In this document: piece by piece, positions 2,517 through 30,676 of the stretch
Numbering within the stretch: the stretch's first letter is position 1
How the letters are laid out: every line of letters begins with the position of its first letter
Source of the DNA: Ignavibacteriota bacterium
Lineage (GTDB): Bacteria > Bacteroidota > Ignavibacteria > UBA10030 > UBA6906
Assembly (NCBI GenBank): GCA_016218065.1
Contig: JACRFA010000003.1
Coordinates: forward strand, 10,090 to 74,089
Direction: 5' to 3'
DNA: 64,000 nucleotides
Translations under genes and position numbers: made by a program
Notes under the pieces: model-generated
What the model saw: only the letters and a program-made list of their open reading frames with translations
The model's database searches: none
What the model was told of the DNA's origin: nothing

Positions 2517-2781
2517 AATCAAAAGAGGTCAAGATGATCTTCTGGCGTTTTCGGGAATCTCCGAGGGGGGTGAGCCAATTTCCAATGATTTCGCGCATGA
2601 GCTAATGAGAAGGTCTCGAAAGATTGTTCATTCACATCCTGTTAGGTGGATAATGAAATCCTCTGCAACGATTGTCGGTACGTGGGGCAGCAGCAAGCAA
2701 AGTGTGCTTCTGTCGACTTCCTTGAGGACGGCTTTCATTATTCGAGAAAATTCATTCTCGCCAAATAGAAGGACAACACGA

Positions 2782-5919: not shown

Positions 5920-5930
5920 CGAGGAGAGAT

Positions 5931-6029
5931 ATGAAGAGAGTTCTTGTTGTTCTGCTCTTTGTTATCTCGATTTCCTCATACGCACAGCGGTCAAGAATGA
6001 TTCTGATTCTTGCACTCAACGTTTCTTAG
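5931..6029 (+). pseudogene. Remnant 5' end (signal peptide only) of another array paralogue
   Basis: A 32-codon ORF reads MKRVLVVLLFVISISSYAQRSRMILILALNVS*. The signal peptide and AQ cleavage site resemble those of the downstream paralogues (compare MNKVIITLLFIIPFSVHAQWSNDP at 7829). Similarity is lost and the frame breaks straight after the AQ. Confidence 0.4.
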
Positions 6030-6058
6030 CACATCACATCAACAACAAGAGAGATAAA

Positions 6059-7816: not shown

Positions 7817-7828
7817 ACGGGAGAGACT

Positions 7829-9538: not shown

Positions 9539-9553
9539 TACATGGGTTGACCT

Positions 9554-11290: not shown

Positions 11291-11304
11291 CGAGGGGTGT
11301 GTTT

Positions 11305-13050
11305 ATGAAAATGATGACTTCAATTCTTGTCCTCGCCGCAACACTCGGCGCACACGCTCAATTGGGCCACGCACAATGGTCAACCAACCCAACGGTGAAT
11401 ACTCGCATCTGCGCCGACACAGGTCGGCAGACGGCGCCCGCTATCATCAGCGATGGTGCAGGTGGTACTATTGTCACATGGGTTGATGGCCGTGCCGGAA
11501 CGCAACTTACCTACGATATCTACGCTCAACGGATTAATGCCGCCGGCGTTGTACAATGGACTACCAACGGTGTTGCGATTTGTACGGCTTCGAGCGATCA
11601 ATTGTCCCCGGTCATAACAAGCGATGGCGCCAACGGGGCGATCATCGCGTGGTACGACTTTCGCAACGGAACGGCGAACCTCGACATCTACAGTCAACGG
11701 GTCAACGCAGCGGGAGTTGTCCAATGGACTTCAAACGGTGTAGCTATCTGCACAGCAACAGCCAGCCAAATGTTTCCTCAACTCGTGAGTGACGGTGCAC
11801 AAGGAGCGATTATCACGTGGCATGATTTCCGCAACGGATCGGGGAACCTCGACATCTACTGCCAACGGGTCAACGCAGCAGGAGTTGTTCAATGGACTTC
11901 AAACGGTGTAGCTATCAGCACAGCAATACGCAACCAATTTTTTCCTCAACTCGTGAGTGACGGTGCACAAGGAGCGATCATCACGTGGTACGACTATCGC
12001 AACGGAACGGCGAACTCCGACATCTACAGCCAGCGGATTAGTGCTTCGGGAGTTGCACAATGGACCGCTGACGGTGTTGCCATTTGTACGGCTTCGAACC
12101 ACCAATTCTCACCGGAACTAATTAGTGATGGCGCCAGCGGGGCGATTGTCGCATGGACTGACTCTCGAAGCGGGAGTGACATCTACTCGCAGCGAGTTGA
12201 TTCAAGCGGGACTGTGCAATGGACTGCTAACGGTGTCGCGATCTGCTCAGCCGCAAATAGCCAATCTGAGCCACACCTCGCCAGTGACGGCGCCAATGGG
12301 GCGATTATTGTGTGGCTCGACTCTCGCAGCGGAACGGATGTGGACCTCTACAGTCAACGGATTACGGCAGCGGGAGCCGTGCAATGGACTGCTGACGGTG
12401 TCGCCATTTGTACAGCTTCGGGTGGTCAATTCACTCCGCTCATAACAAGTGATGGCGTCAACGGAGCGATCATCGCGTGGTATGACCGTCGCAGCGGAAG
12501 TGACGATATCTACGGCCAACGGATTGGTGCGGCGGGAGTTGTGCAATGGACTGCAAATGGGGTTGCGATTTGTAGCGCAACAAACGACCAGGAGTTTCCT
12601 TCCATTGTCGCTGAAGCAAGTGGCGGAGCAATCATCGCATGGTACGATGAACGGGCAAGCTCGTTCGGCGATATTTATGTCCAGAGGGTGAACCCCGATG
12701 GCTCGCTCGGAGGTCCAACTGCAGTGGACGAAATGGATGTTCCTCGCGCATTCACGCTCGAACAGAACTACCCCAACCCGTTCAACCCGTCCACGCGCAT
12801 TGCCTTCTCCCTGCCCGCCGCCCGCCTGCCAGAGGGACAGGGGCAGGCGGGGGTTCAAGGTTCAGGGTTCACGTCCCTCAGGGTGTATGATGTTTTGGGA
12901 CGCGAAGTCGCGACGCTGGTGAATGAGAATTTGAGCGCGGGAAGTTATGAGGTGATGTTCAATGCAAAGGGGCTCGCGAGCGGTGTGTACTTCTACAAAC
13001 TGCAAGTCGGAGAATTTTCTGAAACGAAACGCCTGCTATTGCTGCGATAA
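11305..13050 (+). CDS. T9SS cargo, same repeat family (paralogue 4)
   Basis: The ATG at 11305 sits 7 nt after GAGGGG; the ORF track starts at GTG 11299. Eight repeats of SDGA.GAII.W.D.R.G...DIYSQR....G.VQWT.NGVAICTA, then a T9SS CTD. Confidence 0.85.
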   Translation: MKMMTSILVLAATLGAHAQLGHAQWSTNPTVNTRICADTGRQTAPAIISDGAGGTIVTWVDGRAGTQLTYDIYAQRINAAGVVQWTTNGVAICTASSDQLSPVITSDGANGAIIAWYDFRNGTANLDIYSQRVNAAGVVQWTSNGVAICTATASQMFPQLVSDGAQGAIITWHDFRNGSGNLDIYCQRVNAAGVVQWTSNGVAISTAIRNQFFPQLVSDGAQGAIITWYDYRNGTANSDIYSQRISASGVAQWTADGVAICTASNHQFSPELISDGASGAIVAWTDSRSGSDIYSQRVDSSGTVQWTANGVAICSAANSQSEPHLASDGANGAIIVWLDSRSGTDVDLYSQRITAAGAVQWTADGVAICTASGGQFTPLITSDGVNGAIIAWYDRRSGSDDIYGQRIGAAGVVQWTANGVAICSATNDQEFPSIVAEASGGAIIAWYDERASSFGDIYVQRVNPDGSLGGPTAVDEMDVPRAFTLEQNYPNPFNPSTRIAFSLPAARLPEGQGQAGVQGSGFTSLRVYDVLGREVATLVNENLSAGSYEVMFNAKGLASGVYFYKLQVGEFSETKRLLLLR

Positions 13051-13185
13051 GTAAGATACGCCCCCAGTGCCATTGGGCTTGGAAGCAATGAATGTCTGAA
13101 GGCAAGTTTTGGCTCCCTCGCCTTGCCTCTTTCCATCTCCTTGCCTAATTTCTCACAGCATTGCAATTTCACTCGGGGGGAGTTT

Positions 13186-16100
13186 TTGAACATACACCGG
13201 ATTCGTTTCGCATTACCAGGTCTCGCGCTGCTCGCGTGCCTCCCCTGCGCTTCTTTATCTCAGCATTTCAGTTTTCCCATCGAACATATTGACACGGAGA
13301 ATGGCCTCTCACATAACACGGTCAGTTGTATCACGCAGGACTCCCGCGGTTTCATCTGGATCGGAACGATCGATGGGCTGAATCGATTTGACGGCTACAC
13401 GTGCCGCGTGTTCAAGCACGATCCGCTCAACCCGCATTCACTTTCCAGCAGCTTCATTCACAACATCTCGGAAGATCGCAACGGTACACTGTGGGTCACG
13501 ACGAGAGACGGCGGAGTGAATCGTTTCGACTATCGCGCCGAAACGTTCTCATCCTTTCAAAACAATCCCGCCGATACCACCACCATAGGCGGCAATAAAG
13601 CAGGCGCTGTGTTTCAGGATTCTCGCGGCATCTTATGGGTCACAACAGATGCGGGTCTTCATCGGTTTGACCACGCGGCGGGAACATTCACGCGCTTCTC
13701 TCACAATCCTGATGACGCGTCGTCGTTGAGCAATGATCAAGTAACCGGCATCGCCGAAGATCCCGATGGCACACTCTGGATTGCGACCGACGATGGATTG
13801 AATAAGTTTGATCCACGACGTGGAAAAGTGGTGCTCACCTTCCGCAGCCGCTCCGATGACCGGTCGCTGAGCGACAACAGACTTGTTGGCGTTCTTCTGG
13901 CGCGAAACGGAATGCTCTGGGTTGGCACACGCGGAAATGGCGTGAACATGTTGGACAGAACGTCGGGGACATTCAAACGGTTCACTCCTGATGCAAACAA
14001 CCCGCGTAAGCCAAGCAGCGAGTACGTTGCTCCGATGGTTGAAGATGAGAGAGGAAACATCTGGTGTGCAACGCACGACGGCGTAAATGTGTACGAGCTT
14101 GCGACCGGGATCTTTCATCGGCTTCCGCACGTTCCGAACTCCACTACTTCGATCTCGCACAGCATTATCAGCTCAATTCTTCTCGACACTGTTGGCGATG
14201 TGTGGATTGGAACATGGGGCGGCGGCGTGAACAAACTTGGTCGAAGGTTGCAAAAGTTCAGCGCGATTTCTTCACGAACTGCGCCCGGGGTTTTGCTGAA
14301 CGACTTTGTTCTTGCAATGATGGTGGACCATGAGGGCGCCTTGTGGGTGGGAACGGGCGACGGGTTGAGTCGCAACGTTGCGCGAAGCGGTCAGTCTGCC
14401 GCACCTTCCCAACACCTTCTGCGCAAGATGAGCGTTTGGTGTTTGATGCAAAACGCCGACTCGACGATCTGGGCGGGAACTGGCGATCGCGGGATCGCGA
14501 CATTTACTGCGAACGGGCTGCCTCTTCGGCAATTCGTTCTCGGCGATTCACTCGCGATTGCGGACAACACCATTCGTGCGCTGTTTCGTGATCGTCGCGG
14601 AGTGATTTGGGCAGGTACGCAAGCACACGGCGTCAACAGCTACGACGCCGCAACACGGCGGTGGACGCACTATCCCTTTGGGAAAACGGATGGCACGAGT
14701 GTAAGCGATGAACTGGTGTGGGCAATCAACGAAGACCACGACGGACATTTGTGGTTCGGAACGTATCTCGGCGGATTGAATGAATACGATCCGACGAGCA
14801 AAACGTTTTCATACTATCAACACCGCGCCAATGACTCAACATCGTTGGGGGCGAATGATGTTCGCACCATTTGCGTAACAAGAGCCGGCGAGCTTTGGAT
14901 TGGAACGTATGGCGGCGGCATTTGTCTGCTGAACAAAGCGACCGGAAGGTTTACGCGGGTAACCGAGCGGGATGGATTGGCGAATAATTTTGTGTACGGC
15001 ATACTTGAAGATGACGACGCCAACTTATGGATAAGCACAAACAAAGGGGTCTCGCGGTACAATCCCGCAGCACGAATATTCCGAAACTACACCGCACGCG
15101 ACGGATTGCAGAGTGACGAGTTCAATACCGGCGCGTACTTCAGAGACAGCACCGGCGAGTTGTTCTTCGGCGGCGTCGGCGGGCTGAATCGTTTCTTTCC
15201 TCATGAGGTGTACGAAAACAAACACGTGCCGCCTATTGTCCTTACGTCATTCAAGATTGTTGACAGAGAGCTGACAGGCAAATCACTTTCCTTGCTTGAT
15301 TCGGTTCAGCTCGACTACAGCGATGGATTCTTCTCGTTTGAGTTTGCCGCGCTGGATTATGTCGATCCGCTGCGAAACCAGTATGCGTACATGCTGGAAG
15401 GATTCGATCACGATTGGATATACTCGGGCGCTCGTCGGTACGTCAGCTACACAAACCTCGATCCTGGCAAATACACATTGCGCATGAAAGGCTCGAACAG
15501 CGATGGCGTGTGGAATGAGCAAGGGAAAAGCGTGCTTGTCACCATCGTGCCGCCGTTTTGGATGACAGCGTGGTTCAAGCTGATCGTTGGCGTTCTGATC
15601 GTCGGAACATTTGCAGGAACGGTCCGCTTCATTTCCACGCGCAAGCTGAAAGAACAGTTGCGTACACTGGAGAAGCAGCGCGCACTTCAGGAAGAACGGG
15701 AGCGGATTTCCCGCGACCTGCACGACAATGTCGGCGCGCAGCTTTCCACCATCATCACCGGACTGGAGCTTGCAGAAAAATACGAACAGAAAACCGATCA
15801 TGCGCGCAGCGAGAACCTTCTCGTCAACTTGAAAGATGACGCACGGCTCACCATGGCGCAGTTGCGCGAAACCATTTGGGCGTTAAGTTCGTCGTCGATG
15901 TCGTTGGTGGAATTCTTCGAAAGCATCGAAGCGTACGGCAAGAAGCAAGTGCAGCATCGCATATCGCCAAAGATTTGGTTTTTGTGCGAAGGGAAAGCAG
16001 ACGTCACGCTTTCATCGATACAGGTGCTGCATTTGTTCCGCATCGCGCAAGAAGCACTGACCAATGCACTAAAGCATGCCGATGCGCAGAATATTCACAT

Positions 16101-16311
16101 CGGATTCGAATGCAAGGAAAGGAGGCTGTTGCTTCGCGTAAAGGATGACGGCGTAATTCGGCAGGATCGGAAGGCGGATGAGTTTTCCGGCAGAGGATTG
16201 GCGAACATGGAGCGACGTGCACACGAGTTGAACGGGCGCTTCACCTTCTCACAATCTGAAGGAACGACGGTGGAGATCGAAATCCCGTTGGATGGAGAAT
16301 ACCCCAAGTGA
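13186..16311 (+). CDS. Sensor histidine kinase: two-component-regulator propeller repeats, Y_Y_Y domain, TM segment, HisKA_3 and HATPase_c
   Basis: Repeated ..LW[IV][GT]T..G[LV]N.[FY]D motifs (Reg_prop type). Y_Y_Y region is YAYMLEGFDHDW...YTNLDPGKYTL. TM segment WFKLIVGVLIVGTF. ERERISRDLHDNVGAQL (HisKA_3). ATPase region NALKHA...DDG...GRGLANM. The TTG at 13186 follows GGGGGAG; the ORF track begins at TTG 13123. Confidence 0.9.
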   Translation: MNIHRIRFALPGLALLACLPCASLSQHFSFPIEHIDTENGLSHNTVSCITQDSRGFIWIGTIDGLNRFDGYTCRVFKHDPLNPHSLSSSFIHNISEDRNGTLWVTTRDGGVNRFDYRAETFSSFQNNPADTTTIGGNKAGAVFQDSRGILWVTTDAGLHRFDHAAGTFTRFSHNPDDASSLSNDQVTGIAEDPDGTLWIATDDGLNKFDPRRGKVVLTFRSRSDDRSLSDNRLVGVLLARNGMLWVGTRGNGVNMLDRTSGTFKRFTPDANNPRKPSSEYVAPMVEDERGNIWCATHDGVNVYELATGIFHRLPHVPNSTTSISHSIISSILLDTVGDVWIGTWGGGVNKLGRRLQKFSAISSRTAPGVLLNDFVLAMMVDHEGALWVGTGDGLSRNVARSGQSAAPSQHLLRKMSVWCLMQNADSTIWAGTGDRGIATFTANGLPLRQFVLGDSLAIADNTIRALFRDRRGVIWAGTQAHGVNSYDAATRRWTHYPFGKTDGTSVSDELVWAINEDHDGHLWFGTYLGGLNEYDPTSKTFSYYQHRANDSTSLGANDVRTICVTRAGELWIGTYGGGICLLNKATGRFTRVTERDGLANNFVYGILEDDDANLWISTNKGVSRYNPAARIFRNYTARDGLQSDEFNTGAYFRDSTGELFFGGVGGLNRFFPHEVYENKHVPPIVLTSFKIVDRELTGKSLSLLDSVQLDYSDGFFSFEFAALDYVDPLRNQYAYMLEGFDHDWIYSGARRYVSYTNLDPGKYTLRMKGSNSDGVWNEQGKSVLVTIVPPFWMTAWFKLIVGVLIVGTFAGTVRFISTRKLKEQLRTLEKQRALQEERERISRDLHDNVGAQLSTIITGLELAEKYEQKTDHARSENLLVNLKDDARLTMAQLRETIWALSSSSMSLVEFFESIEAYGKKQVQHRISPKIWFLCEGKADVTLSSIQVLHLFRIAQEALTNALKHADAQNIHIGFECKERRLLLRVKDDGVIRQDRKADEFSGRGLANMERRAHELNGRFTFSQSEGTTVEIEIPLDGEYPK

Positions 16312-16343
16312 TGTATTGCGCAGCGGAGAACTTCACGTATATT
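16300..16343 (+). promoter_or_regulatory. 7-2-7 inverted-heptamer box directly abutting a putative promoter (site s1), upstream of the regulator gene
   Basis: TACCCCA-AG-TGATGTA (16300-16315), then TTGCGC (16316-16321), a 16-nt spacer, then TATATT (16338-16343). Sites s2-s4 have the same architecture. Confidence 0.5.
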
Positions 16344-16381
16344 GTGAGCGGTATTCCAACTTCACACAAACACTGAACTTG

Positions 16382-17077
16382 ATGGACGCTTCTTCTGACC
16401 AGAAAATCCGTATCGCCCTCGTTGAAGACAATGCAACGCTGCGGAAGCGATTCGAGGAGTACTTTTCGTTGTATGAGAGGATTGAGCTTGTTGCTTCGTA
16501 TGCATCCGGTGAAGCAGCGCTCAACAGCATCAAGAAGATGCAGCCGAGCCGCCTGCCGCACATCGTGTTGATGGATATTGAGCTTCCGAATATCTCCGGC
16601 ATCGAAACGACGCAGAAGTTGAAAGAGGAGTTCCCCGACATTGAGGTCATGATGCTGACGGTGTTTGAGGATCAGAACAAGATTCTGCAATCGATACAGG
16701 CCGGAGCGTCGGGGTATTTACTGAAGGATGAATCACCGGACAGCATCGTTGAGGCGTTGGAAGAATGCCTGCGCGGCGGCGCACCGATTTCGCAATCGCT
16801 TGCAAGAAAAGTTCTCGGTATGTTGCGCGCGCCATCGGCCGGCTCATCGGCAGCCACAATGACAAGCAGCGCCAATGAGGACTCATTTGACCTGAGCGAT
16901 CGTGAAATTGAATTGCTTCAGGGCCTGGTACAAGGAGAAGTCTATACAACGCTCGCCGCGAAATTCTTCATCAGTCCACACACCGTTCGCACGCACATCC
17001 GCAATATCTACAAGAAGCTTCAGGTACACAACCGCGCCCACGCCGTCCGCATCGCGATAGAGAAGAAGCTGGTGTAA
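16382..17077 (+). CDS. NarL/LuxR-family response regulator (REC plus HTH_LuxR)
   Basis: MDASSDQKIRIALVEDN...VLMDIELPNISG...LTVFED...GYLLKD, with C-terminal LSDREIELLQGLVQGEVYTTLAAKFFISPHTVRTHIRNIYKKLQV. ATG at 16382 is preferred over the ORF-track start at 16292. Confidence 0.9.
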   Translation: MDASSDQKIRIALVEDNATLRKRFEEYFSLYERIELVASYASGEAALNSIKKMQPSRLPHIVLMDIELPNISGIETTQKLKEEFPDIEVMMLTVFEDQNKILQSIQAGASGYLLKDESPDSIVEALEECLRGGAPISQSLARKVLGMLRAPSAGSSAATMTSSANEDSFDLSDREIELLQGLVQGEVYTTLAAKFFISPHTVRTHIRNIYKKLQVHNRAHAVRIAIEKKLV

Positions 17078-17092
17078 CCTCGCGATCCAGAA

Positions 17093-17136
17093 TACCTCAT
17101 CTGGACTATTGCCCGCCGAATAGCTCTCAGTATATT
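17093..17136 (+). promoter_or_regulatory. 7-2-7 box directly abutting a putative promoter (site s4), upstream of the cargo gene
   Basis: TACCTCA-TC-TGGACTA (17093-17108), then TTGCCC (17109-17114), a 16-nt spacer, then TATATT (17131-17136). The box ends 83 nt before the ATG at 17191. Confidence 0.55.
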
Positions 17137-17190
17137 TCTTCAGAACACACACCAATCTTTCTTCCATCCAACAAAAAAGGGGGAGCCTTT

Positions 17191-18462
17191 ATGCGACGTA
17201 TGATATTCTTTGCGCTGTCGATTTCTTTGATTTGCCAATTTGCTTGGGCGCAATGGCAACGCGTCACCAACGTGAACGCGGGTGCGACCGGCAGAGTTGC
17301 TTCTCACGGCAGCGCGGTGTTTCTCTACGGCTATGAAGGGGGATACAAACTCCATCGTTCCACGGATAATGGAACAACGTGGGTCGATATTTCTTCCAGT
17401 GCGACCGCGGCGTTTGTCGACATCTTCAGCTTCAACGGCATGTTGTACGCTTCTTATCTTAGCACCGTCTATACATCCACCGATCTCGGTCAAAGTTGGA
17501 CGCCGCTTTCGGGTGTTACTGTAACTGGCACCGGGGCGCTTCTCGGCTTTGCATCGGACGGAACGACGTTGTATGCATTCTCGAATCGCAAATCCGTTTT
17601 CAGATCCACGAACAACGGCGCGTCGTGGACGGAATTGCTCATCAATAGCACGGCAAACCTGCTCATTATTGATTTCGCTGCGCGCGGGAATCGCTACGCG
17701 GCAGTTGTTGCAAACGCAGGCGCTTATATCTCCGAAGACGCGGGCGCAACGTGGACACTCCGCAATCCGACAGTAGGTGCGGGCGGCATCTATGGTTTCA
17801 ACAATACTCTCTTCGGCCTCTCGTTTGGCGGCGGAGTGTTCACGATGCAAAACGGAAGTTCGAGTTGGATTGCTGCGAATAGCGGTGTGCCCAGCAACGG
17901 GTCGTTAGTCGTTCCGAGGGCGCCCGCGTCGCAGGGAAGCGCGATCTACTTGGGGTTTCAACAACTTGTTTCGAATTACGGCAGCGTTGTGAGATCAACC
18001 GACGGCGGCGCCTCGTGGACAGAGCTTGACACGGCCGGACTTCCTACGTCGGTTATTCCCGGAGTAGGGGGTACGCGCTATGTTGCAGCCACACCCACAC
18101 ACGTTTACTATTTCTACTACGGTGGTGCAACTCAAGTTGGCGTGTACAGGACGGCCGGTTTGCCGAGCGCAGTGCGCGAGGTTGCATCGGAAATTCCCAA
18201 TGGGTTTTCACTCGAACAGAATTATCCGAATCCGTTTAATCCGTCCACGCGCATCGCTTTCGCGGTTCAGGTTTCAGGGTTCACGTCCCTCAGGGTGTAC
18301 GATGTGTTGGGAAAGGAAGTGGCAACGTTGGTGAATGAGAACTTGAACGCGGGAAGTTACGAGACGACGTTTGATGCGTCCGGTTTGGCAAGCGGTGTGT
18401 ACTTCTATCGTCTGGAGGCTGGAGCGTTTTCACTGACCAAGCGGTTGATGTTGTTGCGTTGA
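17191..18462 (+). CDS. T9SS cargo, Asp-box/BNR-like beta-propeller (~420 aa)
   Basis: GGGGGAG Shine-Dalgarno site and a signal peptide ending AWAQ. Asp-box motifs STDNGTTW, STDLGQSW, STNNGASW, SEDAGATW, STDGGASW. CTD is NYPNPFNPSTRIAF...YRLEAGAFSLTKRLMLLR. Confidence 0.85.
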   Translation: MRRMIFFALSISLICQFAWAQWQRVTNVNAGATGRVASHGSAVFLYGYEGGYKLHRSTDNGTTWVDISSSATAAFVDIFSFNGMLYASYLSTVYTSTDLGQSWTPLSGVTVTGTGALLGFASDGTTLYAFSNRKSVFRSTNNGASWTELLINSTANLLIIDFAARGNRYAAVVANAGAYISEDAGATWTLRNPTVGAGGIYGFNNTLFGLSFGGGVFTMQNGSSSWIAANSGVPSNGSLVVPRAPASQGSAIYLGFQQLVSNYGSVVRSTDGGASWTELDTAGLPTSVIPGVGGTRYVAATPTHVYYFYYGGATQVGVYRTAGLPSAVREVASEIPNGFSLEQNYPNPFNPSTRIAFAVQVSGFTSLRVYDVLGKEVATLVNENLNAGSYETTFDASGLASGVYFYRLEAGAFSLTKRLMLLR

Positions 18463-18716: not shown

Positions 18717-19550
18717 TTGAACGAACTGTCTGACAAACTCCAGGAACTCGGCCTGTCTGGAAGGGAAGCAGAGATATACATCGCTTTGCTGAAGAAGAAG
18801 GAAATGACCGCGCCCGACATAGCAAGAATCACTTCGGTGACCCGAACGAAGTCTTATGAAATACTGCAGAACCTCGTGAAGAAGAGAGTCTGCAACGAAA
18901 AATATCAGAACGGAAGCAAAGTATTCAGCAGCGTCGAACCCACAATTGCAATCCAGAATTTGCTGGCGGTATATGAAGAGGAGCTTACAAAGAAGAAAGT
19001 TCTGGCTGAGCAGGTCAGGGAAGCTTTGGCTGAGTTGCATAGAACAAAAGAACATAAGAACGAACCTCTAGACTACATAGAGGTGCTCAGCGATGTGAAG
19101 CAGATAGGCGAGAGGTGGATGAACATTCTCAAGAACACCAGGAGGGAGTTACTTGCTTTTACAAAACCCCCTTATGCCACGTCCTGGGAGGACAATCTCG
19201 AAGCGCTTGCGGCTTTGTTGAAAGGTAATACCATTGTCAGCAAATGTATCTACGAGTACAAGGGCCTTTCACCTGAACAACTAAAAGTCTTTACGGCGTC
19301 ACTTGAGGCATTCCAGGGCGCGGGTGAAGAAGTAAGAGCAACTGAAGAACTCCCATTGAAAGTGGTCATCAGCGATGAAACAACTACCATGCTGGCATTG
19401 AGCGATCGAATCTCTTTGCGGCCAAGCATTACAACTATGATTATTGATCATCCGAGTTTCGCAAAAGCGCAGAAGAAAATGTTCGAAAGTTACTGGGCCA
19501 ACGCACTTACTCTGGAAGAGTTCAAGAACATGGTCGCTAACCTGCAATAG
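18717..19550 (+). CDS. TrmB-family transcriptional regulator (N-terminal wHTH with a C-terminal effector-like domain)
   Basis: TTG start. N-terminus LQELGLSGREAEIYIALLKKKEMTAPDIARITSVTRTKSYEILQNLVKKRV matches the TrmB-type HTH as I recall it. The gene looks more A/T-rich than its neighbours. Confidence 0.75.
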   Translation: MNELSDKLQELGLSGREAEIYIALLKKKEMTAPDIARITSVTRTKSYEILQNLVKKRVCNEKYQNGSKVFSSVEPTIAIQNLLAVYEEELTKKKVLAEQVREALAELHRTKEHKNEPLDYIEVLSDVKQIGERWMNILKNTRRELLAFTKPPYATSWEDNLEALAALLKGNTIVSKCIYEYKGLSPEQLKVFTASLEAFQGAGEEVRATEELPLKVVISDETTTMLALSDRISLRPSITTMIIDHPSFAKAQKKMFESYWANALTLEEFKNMVANLQ

Positions 19551-19647: not shown

Positions 19648-22600
19648 ATGAAGCGTCAGTTCACTCTAGTCACTATTCTGTTTCTAAGCATACTGTTTGC
19701 ATGCACCGCGATTGCACAACTCAGTGGCATAAAGACCATTGGCGGTGCGGCGCCCGATTATGCTTCAATCAAGGCGGCGCTGCTCGCATTGAAAGCCCAA
19801 GGAGTCACATCGCCCGGTGTCACGTTCGCGATTCGCACCGGTACATACGCGGAAGACTCGCTGATTGTGCGGACATCCACCGCGACCGCCGGATCTCCCA
19901 TTGTGTTCAAGCCGGATGTCGGAGCAACTGTGGTCATCAACGTTACTCCACCCTCAACGTCATTTAACTTTGCAATCAAAATTGACTCGACGAAGTATGT
20001 GACATTTCAAGGAAGCAATAACAACACGACCAGCCGTGATATGACCATCAACGCACTCGGCGCCAATGGCCGACAGGGTGTATGGTTCTTTGGAAACTGC
20101 AGCTACGGTTCTATCAAGAACTGCATCGTTACTGCACAAAGGGACGCGGCGTCGCCGTCTATTTCCTCGTATTGCATCAACTTTGAATCCTCCACGACGG
20201 GGAGCGGCAACGATGCCGACTTTGCGCTCATTGAAAACAACCTTACTCGTTACGCGTATTATGGGATCCGTTGCGTTGGAGTGAGAACCGGTGATTGCAT
20301 GGAGTCGCCGATCATACGAAACAATGTTGTTGATTCGGTTACCAATACCGGCATATATACCACCTCCACCAACTACGCGCTGATTCACGGGAACGATATC
20401 AACACGAAACGTGGCAGCGCAACAGGGCAATGGGGCATCCTCGTTAGCGGTGGCACGTTTAAGACGCGCGTCTACAATAATCGCGTGCACGATATGAACC
20501 AATTGGGCGCGTTCTTCACGTATGGCATCTATATCAATAGTGCTTCGGATCTTGGCCAGCAGAGCGTGTTTAACAACTTTGTGTGGAATCTGAACGTGCC
20601 AGCGTCCGGAGGCGGCACAATTTACGGAATCTACAGCGGCGCGACAAACCAGGCGATTCCCGATACATTCGCGTTTAACACCGTGTACCTTTCCGGTGGT
20701 GGTGCAGGATCAAAGACTTCGTACGCGTTTGGGAAAGCTTCGTCGGGCGCGCCAGTTGTTGCGTACAACAACATCTTCCAGAATTCCCGGAGCGATAGCG
20801 GCGGCATCTCGGCTGCAATCTACAAGAGCACTGCAGCAGCAGTCTTACTATCGAACAACAACAATCTGTATGTAGCTTCAACTTCAGCGGCAGATACGAC
20901 GCACGTTGTCGGTGCCATCGGCACGGTAAAATATCAGAAGATTCAAGATTGGCGCGCAGGAAATGGCAGCGACGTTCAGAGTTTCGATGAGAACACGCCG
21001 TTTCTCAGCGCGACCGACTTGCACATCCAAACAGGCGTTCCTACGCTGATCGAATCAGGGGCAATTCCGTTTGGAAACATCTCAATCGATATCGATGGGA
21101 ATGCAAGGCAGGTCAACTTCCCCGATGTGGGAGCTGATGAAGGCGGGTTCTCATTACTTGATCAGTCAGCTCCAACAATCGCTCACACTTTTCTTGGCGG
21201 TACTGCCTTTACTGGGAACCGAGTTGCTGTGGCGACGATTGCGGATCCGTCAGGGATTGCAACGGGGGCGGGTAGCCCGAGGTTGTGGCATAAGCGCTCA
21301 ACCGATGTATCCTTCACATCAATTGTTGCTGATTCGGTTCGTGGAAGCGCTTATTACTTTACCATCCCCGGACATCCCACGGGTACAACAGTTCAGTATT
21401 ATCTCGCAGCACAGGACGCATCTACCAACAACAATTTCGGTACGTTACCCGTTGGTGGATCTGGAATCAATCCACCTGGTTCAACACCGCCTGCGATTCC
21501 CATCAGTTACGTTGTGCAGGCACCTCTTGCATCTGGCACGTACACCATAGGTTCCGGTGGCAACTTCCCGACCTTGGACTCAGCGTTCAACAAGCTGCGC
21601 TTCGACGGTGTGGCAGGCACCGTGACATTCAACCTTATTGATTCATTGTATCTTGCACCGGGAAAACCGCTCCAGAACTTGCGGCTTGCTCAATCGAAGT
21701 TCACAACCGTCAACGGCGTTCGAGAAGATCTTGCCTTGCCGAGCGCCTATGAATACGATGCGCCCGATACTGTCGGCGCGCTCTCGCTACAGGGACCAAT
21801 TGTCGGAGCAAGCGCAACAAGTCGCGTCACGTTCCGGCCCGCTCCCGGCGTGAACGCGCGGCTCGTCGGAAATGGTGCATGGGTCGCACGCATGTTGGAT
21901 GCCAGCTATGTAACGTGGGACGGCATCAATGCAGGCGGGACGAGCCTTCGCGTCAATGCCACTGCGGGATATGGCATCGTCCTGGAAGGCAATTCCGATT
22001 TCTGTACCGTACAGAACATCTCCTTTGCGACACCGAGCTTTACTTCGATAGTTCTTCAAACCAGAACCGCGGATGCGCCGGACAGTATCATGATCAGGAA
22101 AAACACGGTGGGGGGATATTCGTTCAACGGCGTGTTTATGTCGGATTTGTTCCCCGGAGCAACCGGAATCTCACGGAACATTCGAGTGACGGACAATGAT
22201 TTTGGAACTGCCACTGACAGTATCGCGCAGGCCGGCATCATCTTCCAGTTTGTCAATGGACTGGTCATTGACAACAATCGTATCAGAAATGTTTACAAAA
22301 GTACCCTTGCGGGAAATACGCAAGGGATCGTTGGGCAGTTCCAATACTTCAACGCCAAGATCTACAGAAATATTATACGAGATATTAGCCGGCGATCGGG
22401 TTCAACTGCCTCATCGGTGTACGGCATCAACCTTTTTGGAGCGACACCTGATACGACAAACGTCGATATCTACAACAACATGATTTATGGTCTTGACAAT
22501 CAGTCGACAAGCACGAGCGGAATTGTCGGTGGTATTCAGGTGTCGACCGGAATCAATGATACTATCGCATACAACACGGTCTATCTTACCGGTAACGACG

Positions 22601-25318: not shown

Positions 25319-28300
25319 ATGGTTCAAAGAATTTTCCGACTCGTCGCCGTAAGCATCTTACTTACGCTGGATTTGAGCGCCCAAACCCGGCAAATCATAT
25401 TCGACTCCTTTGGCATTGAGCATGGATTATCGGAAGGCATCGTCCTTTCGGTTGTGCAGGATCGGCGAGGATTTTTGTGGTTCGCTACCGCCGATGGACT
25501 GAATCGTTTTGACGGATATTCATTCACGACATTTCGTACGAGTGCCCGCGACTCGTTCACCATCTCATCGAACTATGTCAACACGGTGTATGAAGATCGC
25601 AACGGGAATCTCTGGATTGGCTCGACCGGAGGTCTTGATGTTTTTGATCCGAAGACTGAACGATTTCATCGATACAATTTTTCTCCCCTCAAGAGTCCCA
25701 AGGGAAATTCGTTTTCCGTGATTCCCATATTTGAAGATTCCGATGGCGCAATTTGGATCGGAATTCTTGGAGGAGGTTTGACGAAATTGGTTCTTGGAAC
25801 GGAACACACATTCCCTCCGGAAATTGATCGCATCGAATCCTTTACGTACAAACCCGAAGACCCAATGAGTATCAGCAATAATCAAGTCTCTTCAATCGGC
25901 GAAGATGACAAGGGAAATCTTTGGGTTGGAACGTGGGAGGGTGGACTGAACATGTTGAACCGGACATCGAAGGCGTTCATGCATTTCCGTCACGAGAAAA
26001 ATAATTTAAACAGCCTCAGTCATGATTTCGTGCGCGTTGTGTATGCCGATGTCCATGGTGCGCTGTGGGTCGGAACGGAAGGAGGAGGACTCGACCGAAT
26101 TGCGAATCGCAAAGAAACCGGCAGACCAACGTTCACTCACTATCGGAATGAACAGAAAAAAGAGGGAACCCTTTCACACAATGTTGTCCGCGCGATTCAT
26201 GAGGACAAGCACGGGAATCTCTGGATAGGAACAGATGGCGGCGGAATTGATCTGTATGATCGCTCAAAGGATTCATTTGTCAATTTCCGGCGCGACGCGG
26301 CTTCCGCCGCAAGCATCGCCAGCAATCGCGTTGTCAGCATTTACGAAGATCCTTCGGGGTCGCTCTGGTTCGGGACGTGGGGGAATGGCGTCAGCCGGTT
26401 TTCTCCTGCGGCGGCCAAGTTCCGCAATGACGAAAATTTCGATGCCATGCTCACGCGGCTTACAAGCAGGTTCATACTTGCGCTCTACGAAGACTCACGC
26501 CATCGACTCTGGATTGGAACTCATGGAGGCGGGTTGAACATGTACGACGCAGCAACAAACAGCGTAACGCAGTACGTTCATGAACTGAAGAATCAACGAA
26601 GTCTGATCAACAATGTCGTTTGGAGCATCACGGAGGACAAGCGCGGCGACATTTGGATGACAACCGATCAGGGAGTTGAGCGGCTCTCGGTGCGTGATGG
26701 AACATTCTCTCACTTCCAACACAACCCCATAGACAGCAGCAGTCTGAGCGACAACTTTGTGAGCCGTATTCTTGCCGACCGTTCCGGCTTGATCTGGATT
26801 CTTGCACCGAATGCAGTAAACAAACTTGACCCTTCAACAGGAAGAGTTACTCGCTATCCGTTGATGACTTCCGACGGCGATTTACTCCCGAGCAACACCG
26901 TAAGCGCGTTGTATGAAGATCGCGCAGGCGAGTTGTGGCTCGGCATCGGCGGGCTTGCGCGTTTCGACATGGAAACCAGACGGATGATTCACTACAAACA
27001 CTCGTCAAGCGATTCACAAAGCATGAACGTTACGGTGAGCAGCATACTGCAAGACCGAAACGGTGCAATGTGGGTCTCGACATTTGGCTCCGGCGTGTAT
27101 TCGTATGATACAACGGGTGGGCAATCCGCACATTACTCCGAGAAGGAGGGTTTACCCAACGATGTTGTGTACGGGATACTCGAAGATGCGCGCGGCTTCC
27201 TGTGGATGAGCACCAACCGCGGGTTATCGAAATTTGATCCGGTTGCGAAGACATTTAAGAACTATGATGTTCACGACGGCTTGCAAAGCAACGAGTTTAA
27301 CCGCGGCGCTTACCTTGCGCTGAGCGATGGTCGGATGATGTTTGGAGGCATTAACGGAATCAATCGCTTCTTCCCCGACAGCATCCGCGACAACACACAC
27401 ATTCCGCCGGTTGTGCTCACGTCCTTCAAGAAGTTTGATGAAGTTGTGCAATTCGATTCCGCGATCTCAGCCATTCGGGCAATTGTTCTGAACTACAAAG
27501 AGAATTTCTTCTCGTTTGAATTTGCCTCGCTCGATTACGCAGAGCCGTCCAAGAACCTCTACATGTATATGCTTGATGGATTGGAACAATCGTGGTCGAA
27601 ACCGGGCACACGCAGAAGCGCGCGCTATACGAACGTCGATCCTGGCGAGTACGTCTTTCGTGTCCGCGGTTCAAACAACGATGGCACGTGGAATACCGAA
27701 GGGATCGCTGTGCGCGTCACGATCACGCCTCCGTTTTGGAGAACGTGGTGGTTTAGCGCTGCATCTGTTTTTGCCATTGCGGGAGTCTTTGGCGGTTCGA
27801 TACGCTACATTTCAACGCGTAAATTGAAAAGGCAATTGGAGGAACTGGAGCGCGAGCGCGCATTGCAACAGGAACGCGAACGCATATCGCGCGATTTGCA
27901 CGATCATGTTGGCGCTCAGCTTGTTAATATCATTTCCGGGTTGGATTTGGTAGGAAAGTATTCTCCGCCAACCGAGACGCGGGCGCAGCGTCTGCTTCAA
28001 TCACTGCAGCACGACGCGCGATCCAGCATTCTCCAACTTCGCGAAACTATCTGGGCAATCAAGACAAAAGCCATGACACTCGATGCGTTTGCCCAGCAGG
28101 TCGAAAACTATTCGCGCAAACAAATGGAATTCCAAACGGATGTTCAGCTTCATTTTGAATCGGACAGGTCCGTGTCGGTTGAATTGACGCCGGTTCAAGT
28201 GCTGAATTGCTTTCGCATAATCCAGGAAGCGTTGACGAATTGCGCCAAGCATGCCAATGCAGAAAATATTTGGGTGAAGCTTCGATGGGTGGAGAGCGGG

Positions 28301-28486
28301 AAACTTGTCGTGATTGTAAAGGATGATGGTGTTGGAGTGCATAAAACCGCGAATGAAGATCGCGTAGGCAATGGCCTTCTCAATATGAAACGACGAGCCG
28401 ACGAACTTGGCGGCACATTGCATTGGGAACCCACAGTCGGCACGGGAATGATCCTCAAGGTTGAGATTCCGATCGCAAAACCATAA
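25319..28486 (+). CDS. Sensor histidine kinase, paralogue of 13186-16311 (Reg_prop repeats, Y_Y_Y, TM, HisKA_3, HATPase_c)
   Basis: Same architecture as the first kinase. Contains GFLWFATADGLNRFDG and similar repeats, YMYMLDGLEQSW...YTNVDPGEYVF, ERERISRDLHDHVGAQL and NCAKHA...DDGVG...GNGLLNM. Confidence 0.9.
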   Translation: MVQRIFRLVAVSILLTLDLSAQTRQIIFDSFGIEHGLSEGIVLSVVQDRRGFLWFATADGLNRFDGYSFTTFRTSARDSFTISSNYVNTVYEDRNGNLWIGSTGGLDVFDPKTERFHRYNFSPLKSPKGNSFSVIPIFEDSDGAIWIGILGGGLTKLVLGTEHTFPPEIDRIESFTYKPEDPMSISNNQVSSIGEDDKGNLWVGTWEGGLNMLNRTSKAFMHFRHEKNNLNSLSHDFVRVVYADVHGALWVGTEGGGLDRIANRKETGRPTFTHYRNEQKKEGTLSHNVVRAIHEDKHGNLWIGTDGGGIDLYDRSKDSFVNFRRDAASAASIASNRVVSIYEDPSGSLWFGTWGNGVSRFSPAAAKFRNDENFDAMLTRLTSRFILALYEDSRHRLWIGTHGGGLNMYDAATNSVTQYVHELKNQRSLINNVVWSITEDKRGDIWMTTDQGVERLSVRDGTFSHFQHNPIDSSSLSDNFVSRILADRSGLIWILAPNAVNKLDPSTGRVTRYPLMTSDGDLLPSNTVSALYEDRAGELWLGIGGLARFDMETRRMIHYKHSSSDSQSMNVTVSSILQDRNGAMWVSTFGSGVYSYDTTGGQSAHYSEKEGLPNDVVYGILEDARGFLWMSTNRGLSKFDPVAKTFKNYDVHDGLQSNEFNRGAYLALSDGRMMFGGINGINRFFPDSIRDNTHIPPVVLTSFKKFDEVVQFDSAISAIRAIVLNYKENFFSFEFASLDYAEPSKNLYMYMLDGLEQSWSKPGTRRSARYTNVDPGEYVFRVRGSNNDGTWNTEGIAVRVTITPPFWRTWWFSAASVFAIAGVFGGSIRYISTRKLKRQLEELERERALQQERERISRDLHDHVGAQLVNIISGLDLVGKYSPPTETRAQRLLQSLQHDARSSILQLRETIWAIKTKAMTLDAFAQQVENYSRKQMEFQTDVQLHFESDRSVSVELTPVQVLNCFRIIQEALTNCAKHANAENIWVKLRWVESGKLVVIVKDDGVGVHKTANEDRVGNGLLNMKRRADELGGTLHWEPTVGTGMILKVEIPIAKP

Positions 28487-28530
28487 TACCTCCTTTGGGG
28501 TATTGTGAACTACACGGCATTCCGTACTTT
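28487..28530 (+). promoter_or_regulatory. 7-2-7 box directly abutting a putative promoter (site s2), upstream of the regulator gene
   Basis: TACCTCC-TT-TGGGGTA (28487-28502) begins 1 nt after the kinase stop codon. It is followed by TTGTGA (28503-28508), a 16-nt spacer and TACTTT (28525-28530). The ATG lies at 28537. Confidence 0.55.
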
Positions 28531-28536
28531 CTTACT

Positions 28537-29220
28537 ATGACACCAATCAAAGTTGCCTGCGTCGAAGACAATACCTCGCTGCGAAAACGGTTCGAAGAAC
28601 AATTTGAATTCTTCGATGACATTCAGCTTGTTGCGACATTTGCAACGGGCGAGGCCGCGCTCAATGCGCTCCGAAAATCCGCTCCGAGCAAACTTCCGGA
28701 TATTGTTCTGATGGATATCGAACTGCCCGGCATGTCGGGCATCGACACAACCATTGCAATCAAAGAACTGTTTCCGGACATCGATGTCATGATGTTTACT
28801 GTTTTTGAGGATGAACTAAAAATCTTTCACGCCATTCAGGCCGGCGCCGCGGGCTATCTGCTGAAAGATGATCCGATTGAAGATGTTGCGCAAGCAATTC
28901 GCGAACTCCACGCCGGCGGCGCGCCGATGTCGCAATCAATCGCGCGTACGGTTCTGTCATTTCTGCGGACAAGGAATAACATGTCCGGAAAGGATTCGTT
29001 GATCGGGTCGGTTCACGAACCCGTTGAGTTCGACCTTTCGGTTCGTGAACTTGAATTGCTGCAAGGATTGGTGCAGGGAGAAACGTATCAGACTCTTGCA
29101 AAGAAACTCTTCATCTCCCCGCACACCGTAAAGACGCATATCAAAAACATCTACAAGAAACTTCACGTTCACTCGCGGGCGCTTGCTGTTCGTGTTGCGT
29201 TGGATAGAGGCTTGGTGTAG
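28537..29220 (+). CDS. NarL/LuxR-family response regulator, paralogue of 16382-17077
   Basis: MTPIKVACVEDN...VLMDIELPGMSG...FTVFED...GYLLKD, with C-terminal LSVRELELLQGLVQGETYQTLAKKLFISPHTVKTHIKNIYKKLHV. Confidence 0.9.
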   Translation: MTPIKVACVEDNTSLRKRFEEQFEFFDDIQLVATFATGEAALNALRKSAPSKLPDIVLMDIELPGMSGIDTTIAIKELFPDIDVMMFTVFEDELKIFHAIQAGAAGYLLKDDPIEDVAQAIRELHAGGAPMSQSIARTVLSFLRTRNNMSGKDSLIGSVHEPVEFDLSVRELELLQGLVQGETYQTLAKKLFISPHTVKTHIKNIYKKLHVHSRALAVRVALDRGLV

Positions 29221-29250
29221 CAGTTCCAAAATTATTTCGGTCACATTCAA

Positions 29251-29297
29251 ATCCTGTTCTCACATTCAATAACGTGAGAACAGGATTTTTTGTTTTT
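29251..29297 (+). terminator. Rho-independent terminator
   Basis: ATCCTGTTCTCAC (29251-29263), a 10-nt loop, GTGAGAACAGGAT (29274-29286), then TTTTTTGTTTTT. Confidence 0.8.
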
Positions 29298-29313
29298 GTG
29301 AGTGATGCTAAAT

Positions 29314-29357
29314 TACCCCCAATGGGGTATTGAGCGGACTTTCGGTAATCCTATTTT
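29314..29357 (+). promoter_or_regulatory. 7-2-7 box directly abutting a putative promoter (site s3), upstream of the cargo gene
   Basis: TACCCCC-AA-TGGGGTA (29314-29329), then TTGAGC (29330-29335), a 16-nt spacer, then TATTTT (29352-29357). The box ends 82 nt before the ATG at 29411. Confidence 0.6.
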
Positions 29358-29410
29358 GAGACAAGACAATTCGAATTCACATTTCTCCAACACCAAAACA
29401 GAGGTTACCC

Positions 29411-30676
29411 ATGAAGAGAACACTTACCGCACTGACACTGAGCGCTATGCTTGTTATACAATCGTCCGCCCAATGGGTGGCAACAAACGGGCCGTTCGGT
29501 GGAGCTGTCCGCAAACTTGCTGTCATTGGAACAAATCTCTTCGCTGCAACGGACAACGTCGGCGTTTCTCTCTCGACCAACAATGGCACAAGTTGGACAG
29601 TGGTCAACACAGGTCTGCCGGCGAATCCTCTTGTCCATACTCTTGTGGCCAGTGGTACGAATCTCTTCGCATCGGTTTCAGCACGCGGGGTGTATCACTC
29701 CACCGACAGTGGCACAAGTTGGACTGCAATCAATAACGGCTTGACGAACACGAATGTGATGGCTCTCGCGGTAAGCGGCACGAATCTCTTTGTTGCAACT
29801 ATGGGCGGCGTTTTTCGTTCGACCGACAACGGCGCAAACTGGACATTGGGCAGCACTGACTTAACAGGCACAAGTGTTCCGTCACTTGCCATCAGCGGCT
29901 CGAATGTCTTTGCAGGAACGGATGGACGCGGCGTCTTTCTCTCGACCAACAACGGCGTTAACTGGGCAGCGGCAAACAACGGCTTTCCTTCTCCGGCAAC
30001 CACAACTGTGCATTCGCTTCTCGCGAGCGCCGAAAATGTTTTTGCAGGATATCACCGCGGCGTTGTTCTATCAACTAACAATGCCTCAACCTGGGCAGCG
30101 ACGAACACCGGCTTTCCGAATGCAACCATAAACGTCATGTCTCTTGTCGCCAGTGGTGGAAATCTCTTCGCTGCAACATCAGGCAGTGGCGTTTTTCGAT
30201 CAACCAACAACGGCGCAAGTTGGGCAACGTTCAACACCGGGTTGTTGAACACTACGGTGATGTCTCTTGCCGTTGTCGGTACGGAACTCTTCGCCGGAAC
30301 GTTTGGCAGCGGAGTGTGGAGACAAGCCATTCCGACCGGTGTAAAAGAAGTGAGTGGAACGAATCCTGAAACATTTTCGCTCGAACAAAACTATCCGAAT
30401 CCGTTTAACCCAAGTACAAGAATCAAATTCCGGATAGGAGATGTCGGAGGTCAGAGGCCCACACTGAGCGTAGCCGAAGGGTCGGAAGTCAGTCGCGTGA
30501 TGTTGAAGGTGTACGATGTATTGGGACGCGAAGTCGCGACGCTGGTGGATGAAGAATTGGAGGCGGGAAGCTACGAAGTGAATTTCGATGCACGCGATCT
30601 CGCGAGCGGCGTATATTTCTACCGAATGACCGTACACGGTTTTGCAGACACCAGAAGGCTTTTGCTTCTGCGCTAA
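29411..30676 (+). CDS. T9SS cargo, Asp-box/BNR-like beta-propeller (~420 aa), counterpart of 17191-18462
   Basis: Signal peptide ending SSAQW. About 47-aa repeats of the form G.NLFA.T...GVF.STNNG.SW...N.G. (STNNGTSW, STDSGTSW, STDNGANW, STNNGVNW, STNNASTW, STNNGASW). T9SS CTD present. Confidence 0.85.
   Translation: MKRTLTALTLSAMLVIQSSAQWVATNGPFGGAVRKLAVIGTNLFAATDNVGVSLSTNNGTSWTVVNTGLPANPLVHTLVASGTNLFASVSARGVYHSTDSGTSWTAINNGLTNTNVMALAVSGTNLFVATMGGVFRSTDNGANWTLGSTDLTGTSVPSLAISGSNVFAGTDGRGVFLSTNNGVNWAAANNGFPSPATTTVHSLLASAENVFAGYHRGVVLSTNNASTWAATNTGFPNATINVMSLVASGGNLFAATSGSGVFRSTNNGASWATFNTGLLNTTVMSLAVVGTELFAGTFGSGVWRQAIPTGVKEVSGTNPETFSLEQNYPNPFNPSTRIKFRIGDVGGQRPTLSVAEGSEVSRVMLKVYDVLGREVATLVDEELEAGSYEVNFDARDLASGVYFYRMTVHGFADTRRLLLLR

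Follow-up and report, generated by a model that had tools for sequence, protein, structure and literature searches.

A conserved palindromic box at predicted promoters of two paralogous two-component modules from an Ignavibacteriota bacterium, a candidate operator for their NarL-family response regulators

Background

The response regulators NarL and NarP of Escherichia coli, which combine a receiver (REC) domain with a GerE-type helix-turn-helix (HTH) domain and are paired with HisKA_3 kinases, recognize a 16-bp core made of two inverted heptamers 2 bp apart (the 7-2-7 arrangement), the heptamer consensus of NarL being TACYYMT. Here we describe a box of related design that occurs four times in a 64,000-nucleotide stretch of DNA from an Ignavibacteriota bacterium (assembly GCA_016218065.1, contig JACRFA010000003.1, positions 10,090 to 74,089; this whole stretch is called the window). 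The box stands at predicted promoters of the regulator gene and of the adjoining gene for a secreted protein in each of two paralogous two-component modules, and we interpret it as the probable operator of the NarL-family regulators encoded beside it. The closest described counterparts are the NarL 7-2-7 sites located at approximately -40 to -49 of napF and -38 to -47 of yeaR, together with the optimal 7-2-7 site TACCCCTAAAGGGGTA that was engineered for crystallography and electrophoretic mobility shift assays (PMC4549865).

Other described systems share parts of this design. VraSR/LiaRS and DosRS employ a NarL-family regulator that acts at palindromes near its own gene and generates positive feedback. 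The lux box, an inverted repeat of 20 bp, has its centre at -42.5 and allows class II-type activation by LuxR. The sigma-A promoters of Bacteroidetes consist of a -33 TTTG and a -7 TAnnTTTG box, and the hybrid two-component systems of Bacteroides sense through a periplasmic Reg_prop beta-propeller with a Y_Y_Y domain.

Results and Discussion

Two paralogous modules and their four boxes

The plus strand of the window carries two paralogous three-gene modules, each of which runs from kinase to regulator to cargo. Module 1 comprises the sensor histidine kinase HK1 (13123..16311; the true start is perhaps some codons 3' of 13123), in which a Pfam scan found Reg_prop beta-propeller repeats and Y_Y_Y, HisKA_3 and HATPase_c domains, the response regulator RR1 (16382..17077), with REC and GerE/LuxR HTH domains and the recognition helix SPHTVRTHIRNIYKKL, and cargo 1 (17191..18462), a protein with a signal peptide, a BNR/Asp-box beta-propeller that is distantly Ycf48-/GH74-like and a C-terminal sorting domain for secretion by a type IX system (T9SS). 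Module 2 comprises HK2 (25319..28486), which has the architecture of HK1, RR2 (28537..29220), with REC and GerE domains and the recognition helix SPHTVKTHIKNIYKKL, and cargo 2 (29411..30676), a BNR/sortilin-like beta-propeller with a T9SS sorting domain. The sorting domain is Por_Secre_tail in both cargo proteins. The paralogues are 38% (HK1/HK2), 61% (RR1/RR2) and 37% (cargo 1/cargo 2) identical. When compared with solved structures, the cargo proteins gave weak Ycf48/GH74 BNR-repeat similarity only, and no function follows from the match.

In both modules one box lies at the kinase/regulator junction and another between the regulator and cargo genes, all four on the plus strand. Box s1 (16298..16318) is made up of the palindrome AATACCCCAAGTGATGTATT and the G that completes a TTG (16316-16318). 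Its core TACCCCA-AG-TGATGTA (16300-16315) is followed by TTGCGC (16316-16321), a 16-nt spacer and TATATT (16338-16343), and the -10/-7-like element TATATTGT (16338..16345), whose register is common to all sites, would belong to an internal RR1 promoter with a start at about 16350-16352. Box s4 (17091..17111; AATACCTCATCTGGACTATT plus G) begins 14 nt past the RR1 stop codon, and its core TACCTCA-TC-TGGACTA (17093-17108) is followed by TTGCCC, 16 nt and TATATT (17131-17136); the element TATATTTC (17131..17138) would serve cargo 1 from a predicted start at about 17143-17145. The core of s4 ends 83 nt before the cargo 1 ATG (17191), and the predicted 5' untranslated region of about 47 nt contains a Shine-Dalgarno-like GGGGGAG. 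In module 2, box s2 (28485..28505; AATACCTCCTTTGGGGTATT plus G) has the core TACCTCC-TT-TGGGGTA (28487-28502) followed by TTGTGA, 16 nt and TACTTT (28525-28530), and from the element TACTTTCT (28525..28532) the predicted start of the internal RR2 promoter falls on the RR2 ATG itself (28537, box position 51). Box s3 (29312..29332; ATTACCCCCAATGGGGTATT plus G) has the core TACCCCC-AA-TGGGGTA (29314-29329) followed by TTGAGC, 16 nt and TATTTT (29352-29357), with TATTTTGA (29352..29359) as the candidate element of the cargo 2 promoter and a predicted start at about 29364-29366. The original prediction, made from the sequence of the window, had placed four sites here with a TTGNNN, a 16-nt spacer and a -10 element after each of them, and the sequence reads exactly so.

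The HK1 stop codon TGA (16309-16311) lies inside s1, whereas the first two bases of the 20-bp s2 box fall within the HK2 stop codon TAA (28484-28486) and its core begins right after it, so that coding constraint cannot account for the common sequence. Between RR2 and s3, direct folding identified an intrinsic terminator (29251..29298, plus strand) whose 13-bp stem (29251-29286) closes a 10-nt loop and precedes a T-tract ending at 29298; the segment that holds it (29221-29313) folds at -30 kcal/mol (z = -5.85), and a generic scan missed it because of the 10-nt loop. Given this terminator, cargo 2 must have its own promoter. Module 1 has no equivalent terminator between RR1 and s4, and the window scan found no box 5' of HK1 or HK2.

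Occurrence of the motif in the window

The pattern TACCYCNNNTGRNNTATTG, with one mismatch permitted, matches only s1 to s4 in the window, all on the plus strand, where shuffled sequences lead one to expect 0.03 matches. This count is circular, since the pattern was itself taken from the four sites. For an independent test, a position weight matrix (PWM) was derived solely from 21 sites that orthologous loci in other genomes contribute, the window sites being left out, and it returned s3, s2, s1 and s4 as the top four distinct sites with 30.3, 28.0, 25.8 and 21.3 bits. The ranked list also has, between these, three entries that are the same palindromes read on the reverse strand, and the next unrelated match in the window reaches 9.3 bits; the maxima over 50 shuffles averaged 12.6 bits, the largest being 20.6. 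The four sites noted in the original prediction are thus real and not chance matches.

Because the modules are paralogous (38%, 61% and 37% protein identity), the likeness of the boxes might be a remnant of the duplication, or else a chance match. We give this next to no credence: the DNA around the four boxes cannot be aligned, the kinase stop codons differ in place relative to the box, the box is kept in distant genomes, and chance would have to overcome both the expectation of 0.03 matches and an independent PWM that sets the sites more than 10 bits above background. The comparison with orthologues rejects remnant and chance alike in practice.

Symmetry of the box

Over the 21 sites from outside the window, the information profile reads AA-TACCnC-nnnT-GnGGTATTG, then 21 uninformative positions, then A41 and T44-46. 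The conserved-position counts are 19/21 for G19, 17/21 for A41, 21/21 for T44, 15/21 for T45 and 13/21 for T46, and G47 is not conserved. The element is a 20-bp palindrome, AATACCnC-N4-GnGGTATT, which leaves only the G of the TTG outside the symmetry, and the last two T's of the palindrome are the TT of the TTG (-33/-35) element, an overlap of 2 bp. The 7-2-7 layout of inverted heptamers with a 2-bp gap is present in all 4 window and all 21 orthologous sites, 22 to 23 of these 25 sites have complementary bases at each of the symmetric positions 1/16, 3/14, 4/13 and 6/11, and the distance from the box to T44 does not vary in any of them. The half-sites are symmetric with a spacing of 10 bp, which fits the expectation for a dimer of a GerE-type HTH protein.

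Heptamer positions 1 to 6 (T-A-C-C-n-C) fit TACYYM, with C3 and C4 invariant (21/21), except that some sites have a G or an A at position 5, neither of which is a Y. The T that a NarL-type site would have at position 7 is rare (2/21, against A in 12/21), and position 10 is T in 16/21. The core of s3 (TACCCCCAATGGGGTA) is identical to the optimal NarL site at 14 of 16 positions, and a box of the orthologous locus L173 (at 4679; TACCCCGAAAGGGGTA) at 15 of 16. The original prediction of a NarL-type 7-2-7 box abutting the -35 element therefore survives in its geometry, in this likeness to the optimal site and in the presence of a TTG at an invariant register (25/25). It needs correction in two respects, since the palindrome extends over 20 bp, not 16, and overlaps the TTG by 2 bp.

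A palindrome of this kind could also work as an RNA hairpin, that is, as a terminator, attenuator or processing site, and s2 and s3 do fold stably (-13.6 and -8.9 kcal/mol). Box s1, on the other hand, does not fold, and s4 forms a different hairpin. Only one symmetric pair varies, 5/12; of the 25 sites, 13 have a Watson-Crick pair there, 2 a G-U pair and 10 a mismatch, with no compensation, and no U-tract follows the palindrome. The uncompensated pair and the missing U-tract fit two degenerate half-sites contacted by protein and not a selected stem, and a hairpin would leave the -10/-7 element at its fixed distance unexplained. We rejected the hairpin or terminator explanation on these folding and pair-compensation tests and leave it very little chance.

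Regulator family

By their domain content and their solved homologues, RR1 and RR2 are bona fide NarL-family response regulators. The Pfam scan gave Response_reg and GerE at 4.7e-23 and 2.6e-16 for RR1 and at 2.3e-20 and 1.6e-17 for RR2. The best solved full-length homologues, over residues 7-230, are VraR (2.4e-24), NarL (7.6e-23), ChrA and DesR, and the C-terminal domain alone matches ChrA, LiaR/VraR-type domains, GerE and NarL. Both partner kinases belong to the HisKA_3 class with HATPase_c, and the NarL/LuxR type that had been proposed for the adjacent regulators is confirmed by this combination of REC, GerE and HisKA_3 partner. Aligned with NarL of E. coli (sequence from NC_000913.3), RR1 and RR2 are 27-29% identical to it, and the recognition helix TVKTHIKNIYKKL is set against TVKVHVKHMLKKM of NarL. 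Lysine is retained at the positions of NarL K188 and K192, which we take to be residues that contact bases in NarL-DNA structures, in the RR2-type proteins, with arginine instead in RR1.

The recognition helices of RR1 and RR2 are nearly identical and all four boxes are of one class, which makes cross-regulation likely: either regulator could act at all four promoters, judging from these helices, and any insulation between the modules must reside in the kinase-regulator pairing. It had been proposed that each system serves its own regulator and cargo genes. The pairing of boxes supports this, recurring as it does in at least 13 loci, but such an arrangement cannot be separated from cross-regulation between RR1 and RR2.

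Orthologous loci

Metagenomes contain many close relatives of RR1 (43-81% identity). For twelve of these the surrounding genomic sequence was obtained by exact-protein look-up, and four more loci (L085, L086, L087 and L092; orthologous loci are cited by such numbers) came from a metagenome scan with a 35-sequence alignment, which returned mostly generic NarL-family peptides. A scan of genome contigs with the RR1 and RR2 alignment gave, among the matches listed, regulators of at most 48% identity without the strict box at equivalent positions. The gene order of the modules, a Reg_prop/Y_Y_Y/HisKA_3 kinase followed by a regulator and a T9SS cargo of the BNR/sortilin/DUF6242 type, recurs in most of the fetched loci.

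Across Ignavibacteriota and Bacteroidota, the box stands at the kinase/regulator junction of at least 13 independent loci (L081, L082, L084, L165, L167, L169, L171, L173, L174, L176, L178, L085, L086 and L092), with regulators 43-74% identical to RR1. In every locus with this kinase type the box lies 45-67 nt before the start of the regulator coding sequence, or 105 nt before it in L081, where it overlaps or adjoins the 3' end of the kinase gene, and its flanks are not conserved between loci. Nearly all of these loci have a second box 4-212 nt past the regulator stop codon and 5' of the cargo gene. The gene that follows a box is a T9SS cargo of the BNR/sortilin type in L081, L165, L167, L169, L173 (twice), L174 (once), L178 and L085; in L174 another box precedes an unannotated gene, and the boxes at L173 8524 and L174 5979 stand before further cargo genes. 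L086 and L176 also have a box just past the regulator gene, followed by a gene without an assigned identity. Where there is no cargo gene 3' of the regulator (L082, L084 and L171), only the regulator box is present. A palindrome present in four copies at a fixed distance from a promoter, and in the same layout in related genomes, is very probably the regulators' own DNA-binding site.

The palindrome might nevertheless be bound by a transcription factor encoded elsewhere, or be the promoter element of an alternative sigma factor. A gene for a TrmB-type transcriptional regulator does lie between the two modules (18717-19550), and the pairing of regulator and box is itself drawn from comparison. 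We allow this only a slim chance, because the regulator gene is the sole constant companion of the box in the 13 or more loci, the half-site tracks the recognition helix of the regulator (see below), and a sigma-factor element is not expected to have two-fold symmetry. In addition, approximately 790 kb of sequence around more distant regulators contained five sites of at least 17 bits, four of which (L091, L094, L095 and L098) adjoin regulator genes of the wider family. The TrmB-type regulator was rejected as the box-binding protein, its gene being absent from the orthologous loci. The fifth site, a 21-bit box-like match at L035 916 (AAAAACACCAATGGGGTATTG), is situated about 2 kb 5' of a regulator of the Chitinophagaceae clade and is unexplained.

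The box and regulator are also found together in a cultured organism. In the cultured Cytophagia species Imperialibacter roseus (CP136051.1, L180), a regulator with the same recognition helix is preceded by the box TTTACCCCAAATTGGGTATTG (4934-4954), with A41, T44-46 and G47 in place, and a second box (AATACCGTCTTCGGGGTATAT, about 2880-2900) occupies a divergent region adjoining the gene of a 4161-amino-acid T9SS protein. On CP136051.1 the regulator gene is at about 5196570-5197292, the first box at about 5196505 and the second, some 2 kb upstream, near 5194450. This regulator has a TPR-type kinase as its partner and no adjacent BNR cargo, so Imperialibacter roseus is a model for the box-regulator pair and not for the whole module. 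A perfect palindrome, TACCTCAATTGAGGTA, was also seen at 3714-3729 of L022, a metagenome-assembled genome from Verrucomicrobia subdivision 3, about 70-130 nt past a NarL-family regulator gene whose product is 39% identical to RR1. From its sequence, this type of box may extend beyond the Fibrobacterota-Chlorobiota-Bacteroidota (FCB) group.

Half-sites and recognition helices

The AATACC half-site goes with the regulator helix SPHTV[KR]TH. In L092, where the helix is SPFTV, the half-sites are TACTCC/GGAGCA, and the Chitinophagaceae-type regulators, with the helix SISTxRTH, are accompanied by AATCAT-N8-(A/C)CGATTG in the same frame. The AATCAT box is found 54 nt 5' of the regulator ATG in L003 and L035 and again 3' of the regulator gene in L002, L003 and L035 (at approximately 1568 and 2313 in L003, 2944 and 3812 in L035, and 3661 in L002). 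A second kinase-regulator module on the same contig of L171 has AATGACTCAAACGGGTCATTG (8328-8348; AATGAC-N8-GTCATTG) at its junction, which keeps the 20-bp frame with the G and has A41 and T44-45 in place, with a different half-site. Different regulator clades thus have different half-sites in one constant frame. Within the AATACC class, right half-sites are more degenerate in the RR1 clade (GATGTA, GGACTA, GAAGTA, GAGGTA) than in the RR2-like clade (GGGGTA), a weak trend among few sequences.

Promoter geometry and predicted transcripts

In the conserved pattern the TTG is followed, 21 nt on, by A-nn-TTT (A41, T44-46), and the window sites have TA one position earlier. From its sequence, such a promoter appears to resemble the FCB type, with a -33 TTG and a -7 TAnnTTTG about 19-21 nt apart, more closely than TTGACA/TATAAT. 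The TTG/-10 promoter of the original prediction is retained as an element in fixed register and tentatively revised in its type. The sigma-A -7 box of Flavobacterium psychrophilum, TAnnTTTG, extends from -12 to -5 (PMC9723704). With the palindrome centre at box position 8.5, taking A41 as -11 makes box position 52 the +1 and gives a centre of -43.5; if the window sites are read as TAnnnT hexamers in which T44 is -7, +1 moves to position 51 and the centre to -42.5, in both cases counted from an inferred start site. A predicted centre between about -42.5 and -43.5 is a class II activator position, such operators lying near -41.5 to -43.5, and the box shares with the yeaR and napF sites of E. coli a centre about 42-44 bp 5' of the start, the start here again being predicted.

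A dimer in this place could repress as well as activate: by sitting on the -33/-35 element it would block RNA polymerase, which would produce negative autoregulation and keep the cargo gene off until a signal arrives. The 2-bp overlap with the TTG suits such a role, and NarL represses at some 7-2-7 sites, for example at frdA (PMC4549865). We consider repression unlikely on three grounds. The spacing from the box to the -10/-7 element is the same in 25 of 25 sites, which is typical of activators and favours one that contacts the polymerase, where a repressor would tolerate variable placement; the centre near -42.5 agrees with the napF and yeaR 7-2-7 sites upstream of their starts; and the weak -35 hexamers suggest dependence on an activator.

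Of 16 sites upstream of regulator genes, 11 have the start codon of the regulator at box position 51-55 (at 51 for RR2), which would make the regulator transcript leaderless or nearly so. RR2 and most of the orthologous regulators are predicted on this basis to be translated from leaderless or near-leaderless transcripts, and this is unusual against Flavobacterium psychrophilum, where leaderless mRNAs make up about 5.5% of transcripts (PMC9723704). Cargo start codons are found at box positions 72-140.

Proposed mechanism

We interpret the four sites as operators to which a NarL-family response regulator would bind as a dimer; the protein is probably phosphorylated RR1 or RR2, and it would act by class II activation in autoregulation of the regulator and in control of the cargo gene, and we put the probability of this interpretation at roughly 0.75. 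A signal would be sensed by the propeller/Y_Y_Y kinase, and a dimer of phosphorylated RR1 or RR2 would occupy the 20-bp inverted repeat, where, centred at about -42.5 to -43.5, it would touch RNA polymerase in the class II manner. The internal promoter within the kinase-regulator pair would transcribe the regulator gene alone, and this regulator-only transcript would give positive feedback by raising the level of the regulator relative to the kinase. The second promoter would transcribe the adjoining beta-propeller gene, whose product would be exported by the type IX secretion system.

Several points weigh against this interpretation. Binding, its dependence on phosphorylation, the start sites and the direction of regulation are all argued from comparison, and a site on the -35 element could equally repress. 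The right half-sites of s1 and s4 are degenerate (GATGTA and GGACTA). The -35 hexamers match TTGACA poorly, and a generic sigma-70 scan flagged the s4 promoter alone (TTGCCC-16-TATATT); the promoter consensuses used come from other taxa and may not be those of the Ignavibacterial host. RR1 has a predicted leader of about 32 nt, unlike most of its orthologues. Finally, the box scan of this genome covered 64 kb, and the size of the regulon lies beyond that scope.

Comparison with described systems

From its sequence, the box would act as NarL does at a 7-2-7 site, but the modules are not a Nar system. The 7-2-7 core, the REC and GerE regulator and the HisKA_3 partner are shared with NarL/NarP. 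The regulators, however, are only distantly related to E. coli NarL (27-29% identity), and the kinase senses through a beta-propeller and Y_Y_Y and not through the nitrate sensor of NarX/NarQ. Heptamer position 7 is mostly A and not T, and the palindrome, 20 bp long (AAT...ATT), runs into the TTG. Instead of respiratory genes, the box would control its regulator gene and the gene of a T9SS cargo, and the host is an Ignavibacteriota organism. With the lux box it has in common a 20-bp palindrome over the -35 region, a GerE/LuxR-type HTH dimer and a predicted centre at -42.5; LuxR, in contrast, is controlled by an acyl-homoserine-lactone ligand and not by phosphorylation, and the half-sites are unrelated.

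VraSR/LiaRS and DosRS resemble the modules in having a NarL-family regulator at palindromes near its own gene, with VraR as the closest solved homologue. In those systems the autoregulated promoter precedes all genes of the operon, or else the gene order starts with the regulator, whereas the promoter here is internal, after the kinase gene, and would raise the regulator only, from a mostly leaderless transcript. The TTG, the 21 nt and the A-nn-TTT recall the Bacteroidetes sigma-A promoters, but here the -7 box lacks a conserved final G, and the window sites read equally well as TAnnnT with a 16-nt spacer. The sensor is of the kind found in the Bacteroides hybrid systems, from which the modules differ in that kinase and regulator are separate proteins, with a HisKA_3 transmitter and a GerE/LuxR output and not an AraC fusion.

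The underlying mechanism, in which a response regulator at a class II palindrome regulates its own gene, is textbook; our searches of the available literature returned no description of a family of propeller/Y_Y_Y kinases with NarL-type regulators or of its box. If the proposed mechanism is correct, the box provides a concrete cis-regulatory code for a two-component family that is widespread in Ignavibacteriota and Bacteroidota and ties this family directly to a class of type IX secretion cargo. The internal, mostly leaderless promoter for the regulator alone would be an unusual form of feedback, shifting the regulator-to-kinase ratio on induction. The NarL-type half-site appears deeply conserved, TACCCC being used almost unchanged by regulators of a distant phylum at the low identity to NarL given above, and, from the loci compared, other half-sites appear to occupy the same frame across the FCB group.

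A broader and more speculative possibility, to which we assign well under even odds, is that these loci follow a design common to the FCB group. The frame AATnnn-N8-nnnATT-G-N21-A-nn-TTT would be fixed, its inner triplet (ACC here, CAT/CGx in Chitinophagaceae, GAC in the second module of L171) would co-evolve with the recognition helix, and the regulator, transcribed alone and leaderless from inside the kinase-regulator pair, would form a self-contained feedback switch driving a dedicated T9SS beta-propeller. If this were true, sequence could reveal the direct targets of two-component systems that number in the thousands and are still uncharacterised in uncultured Ignavibacteriota and Bacteroidota, and paralogous modules that share a box, as in the window, would constitute a cross-regulated hub.

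Other features of the window

Directly 5' of HK1 (2446-13050) there are five consecutive genes for T9SS-sorted proteins of 1157, 585, 569, 578 and 583 amino acids, the last four of which resemble tandem paralogues; the PWM scan of the window found no box before any of the five. The TrmB-type regulator gene stands between cargo 1 and the gene of a T9SS protein of 1245 amino acids (19648-23385). Just 3' of module 2, on the opposite strand, is a gene for a methyl-accepting chemotaxis protein with HAMP and MCPsignal domains (31500-33269, minus strand). Further along, a single open reading frame (38732-41470) encodes POTRA and Omp85 domains together with a patatin-like phospholipase domain.

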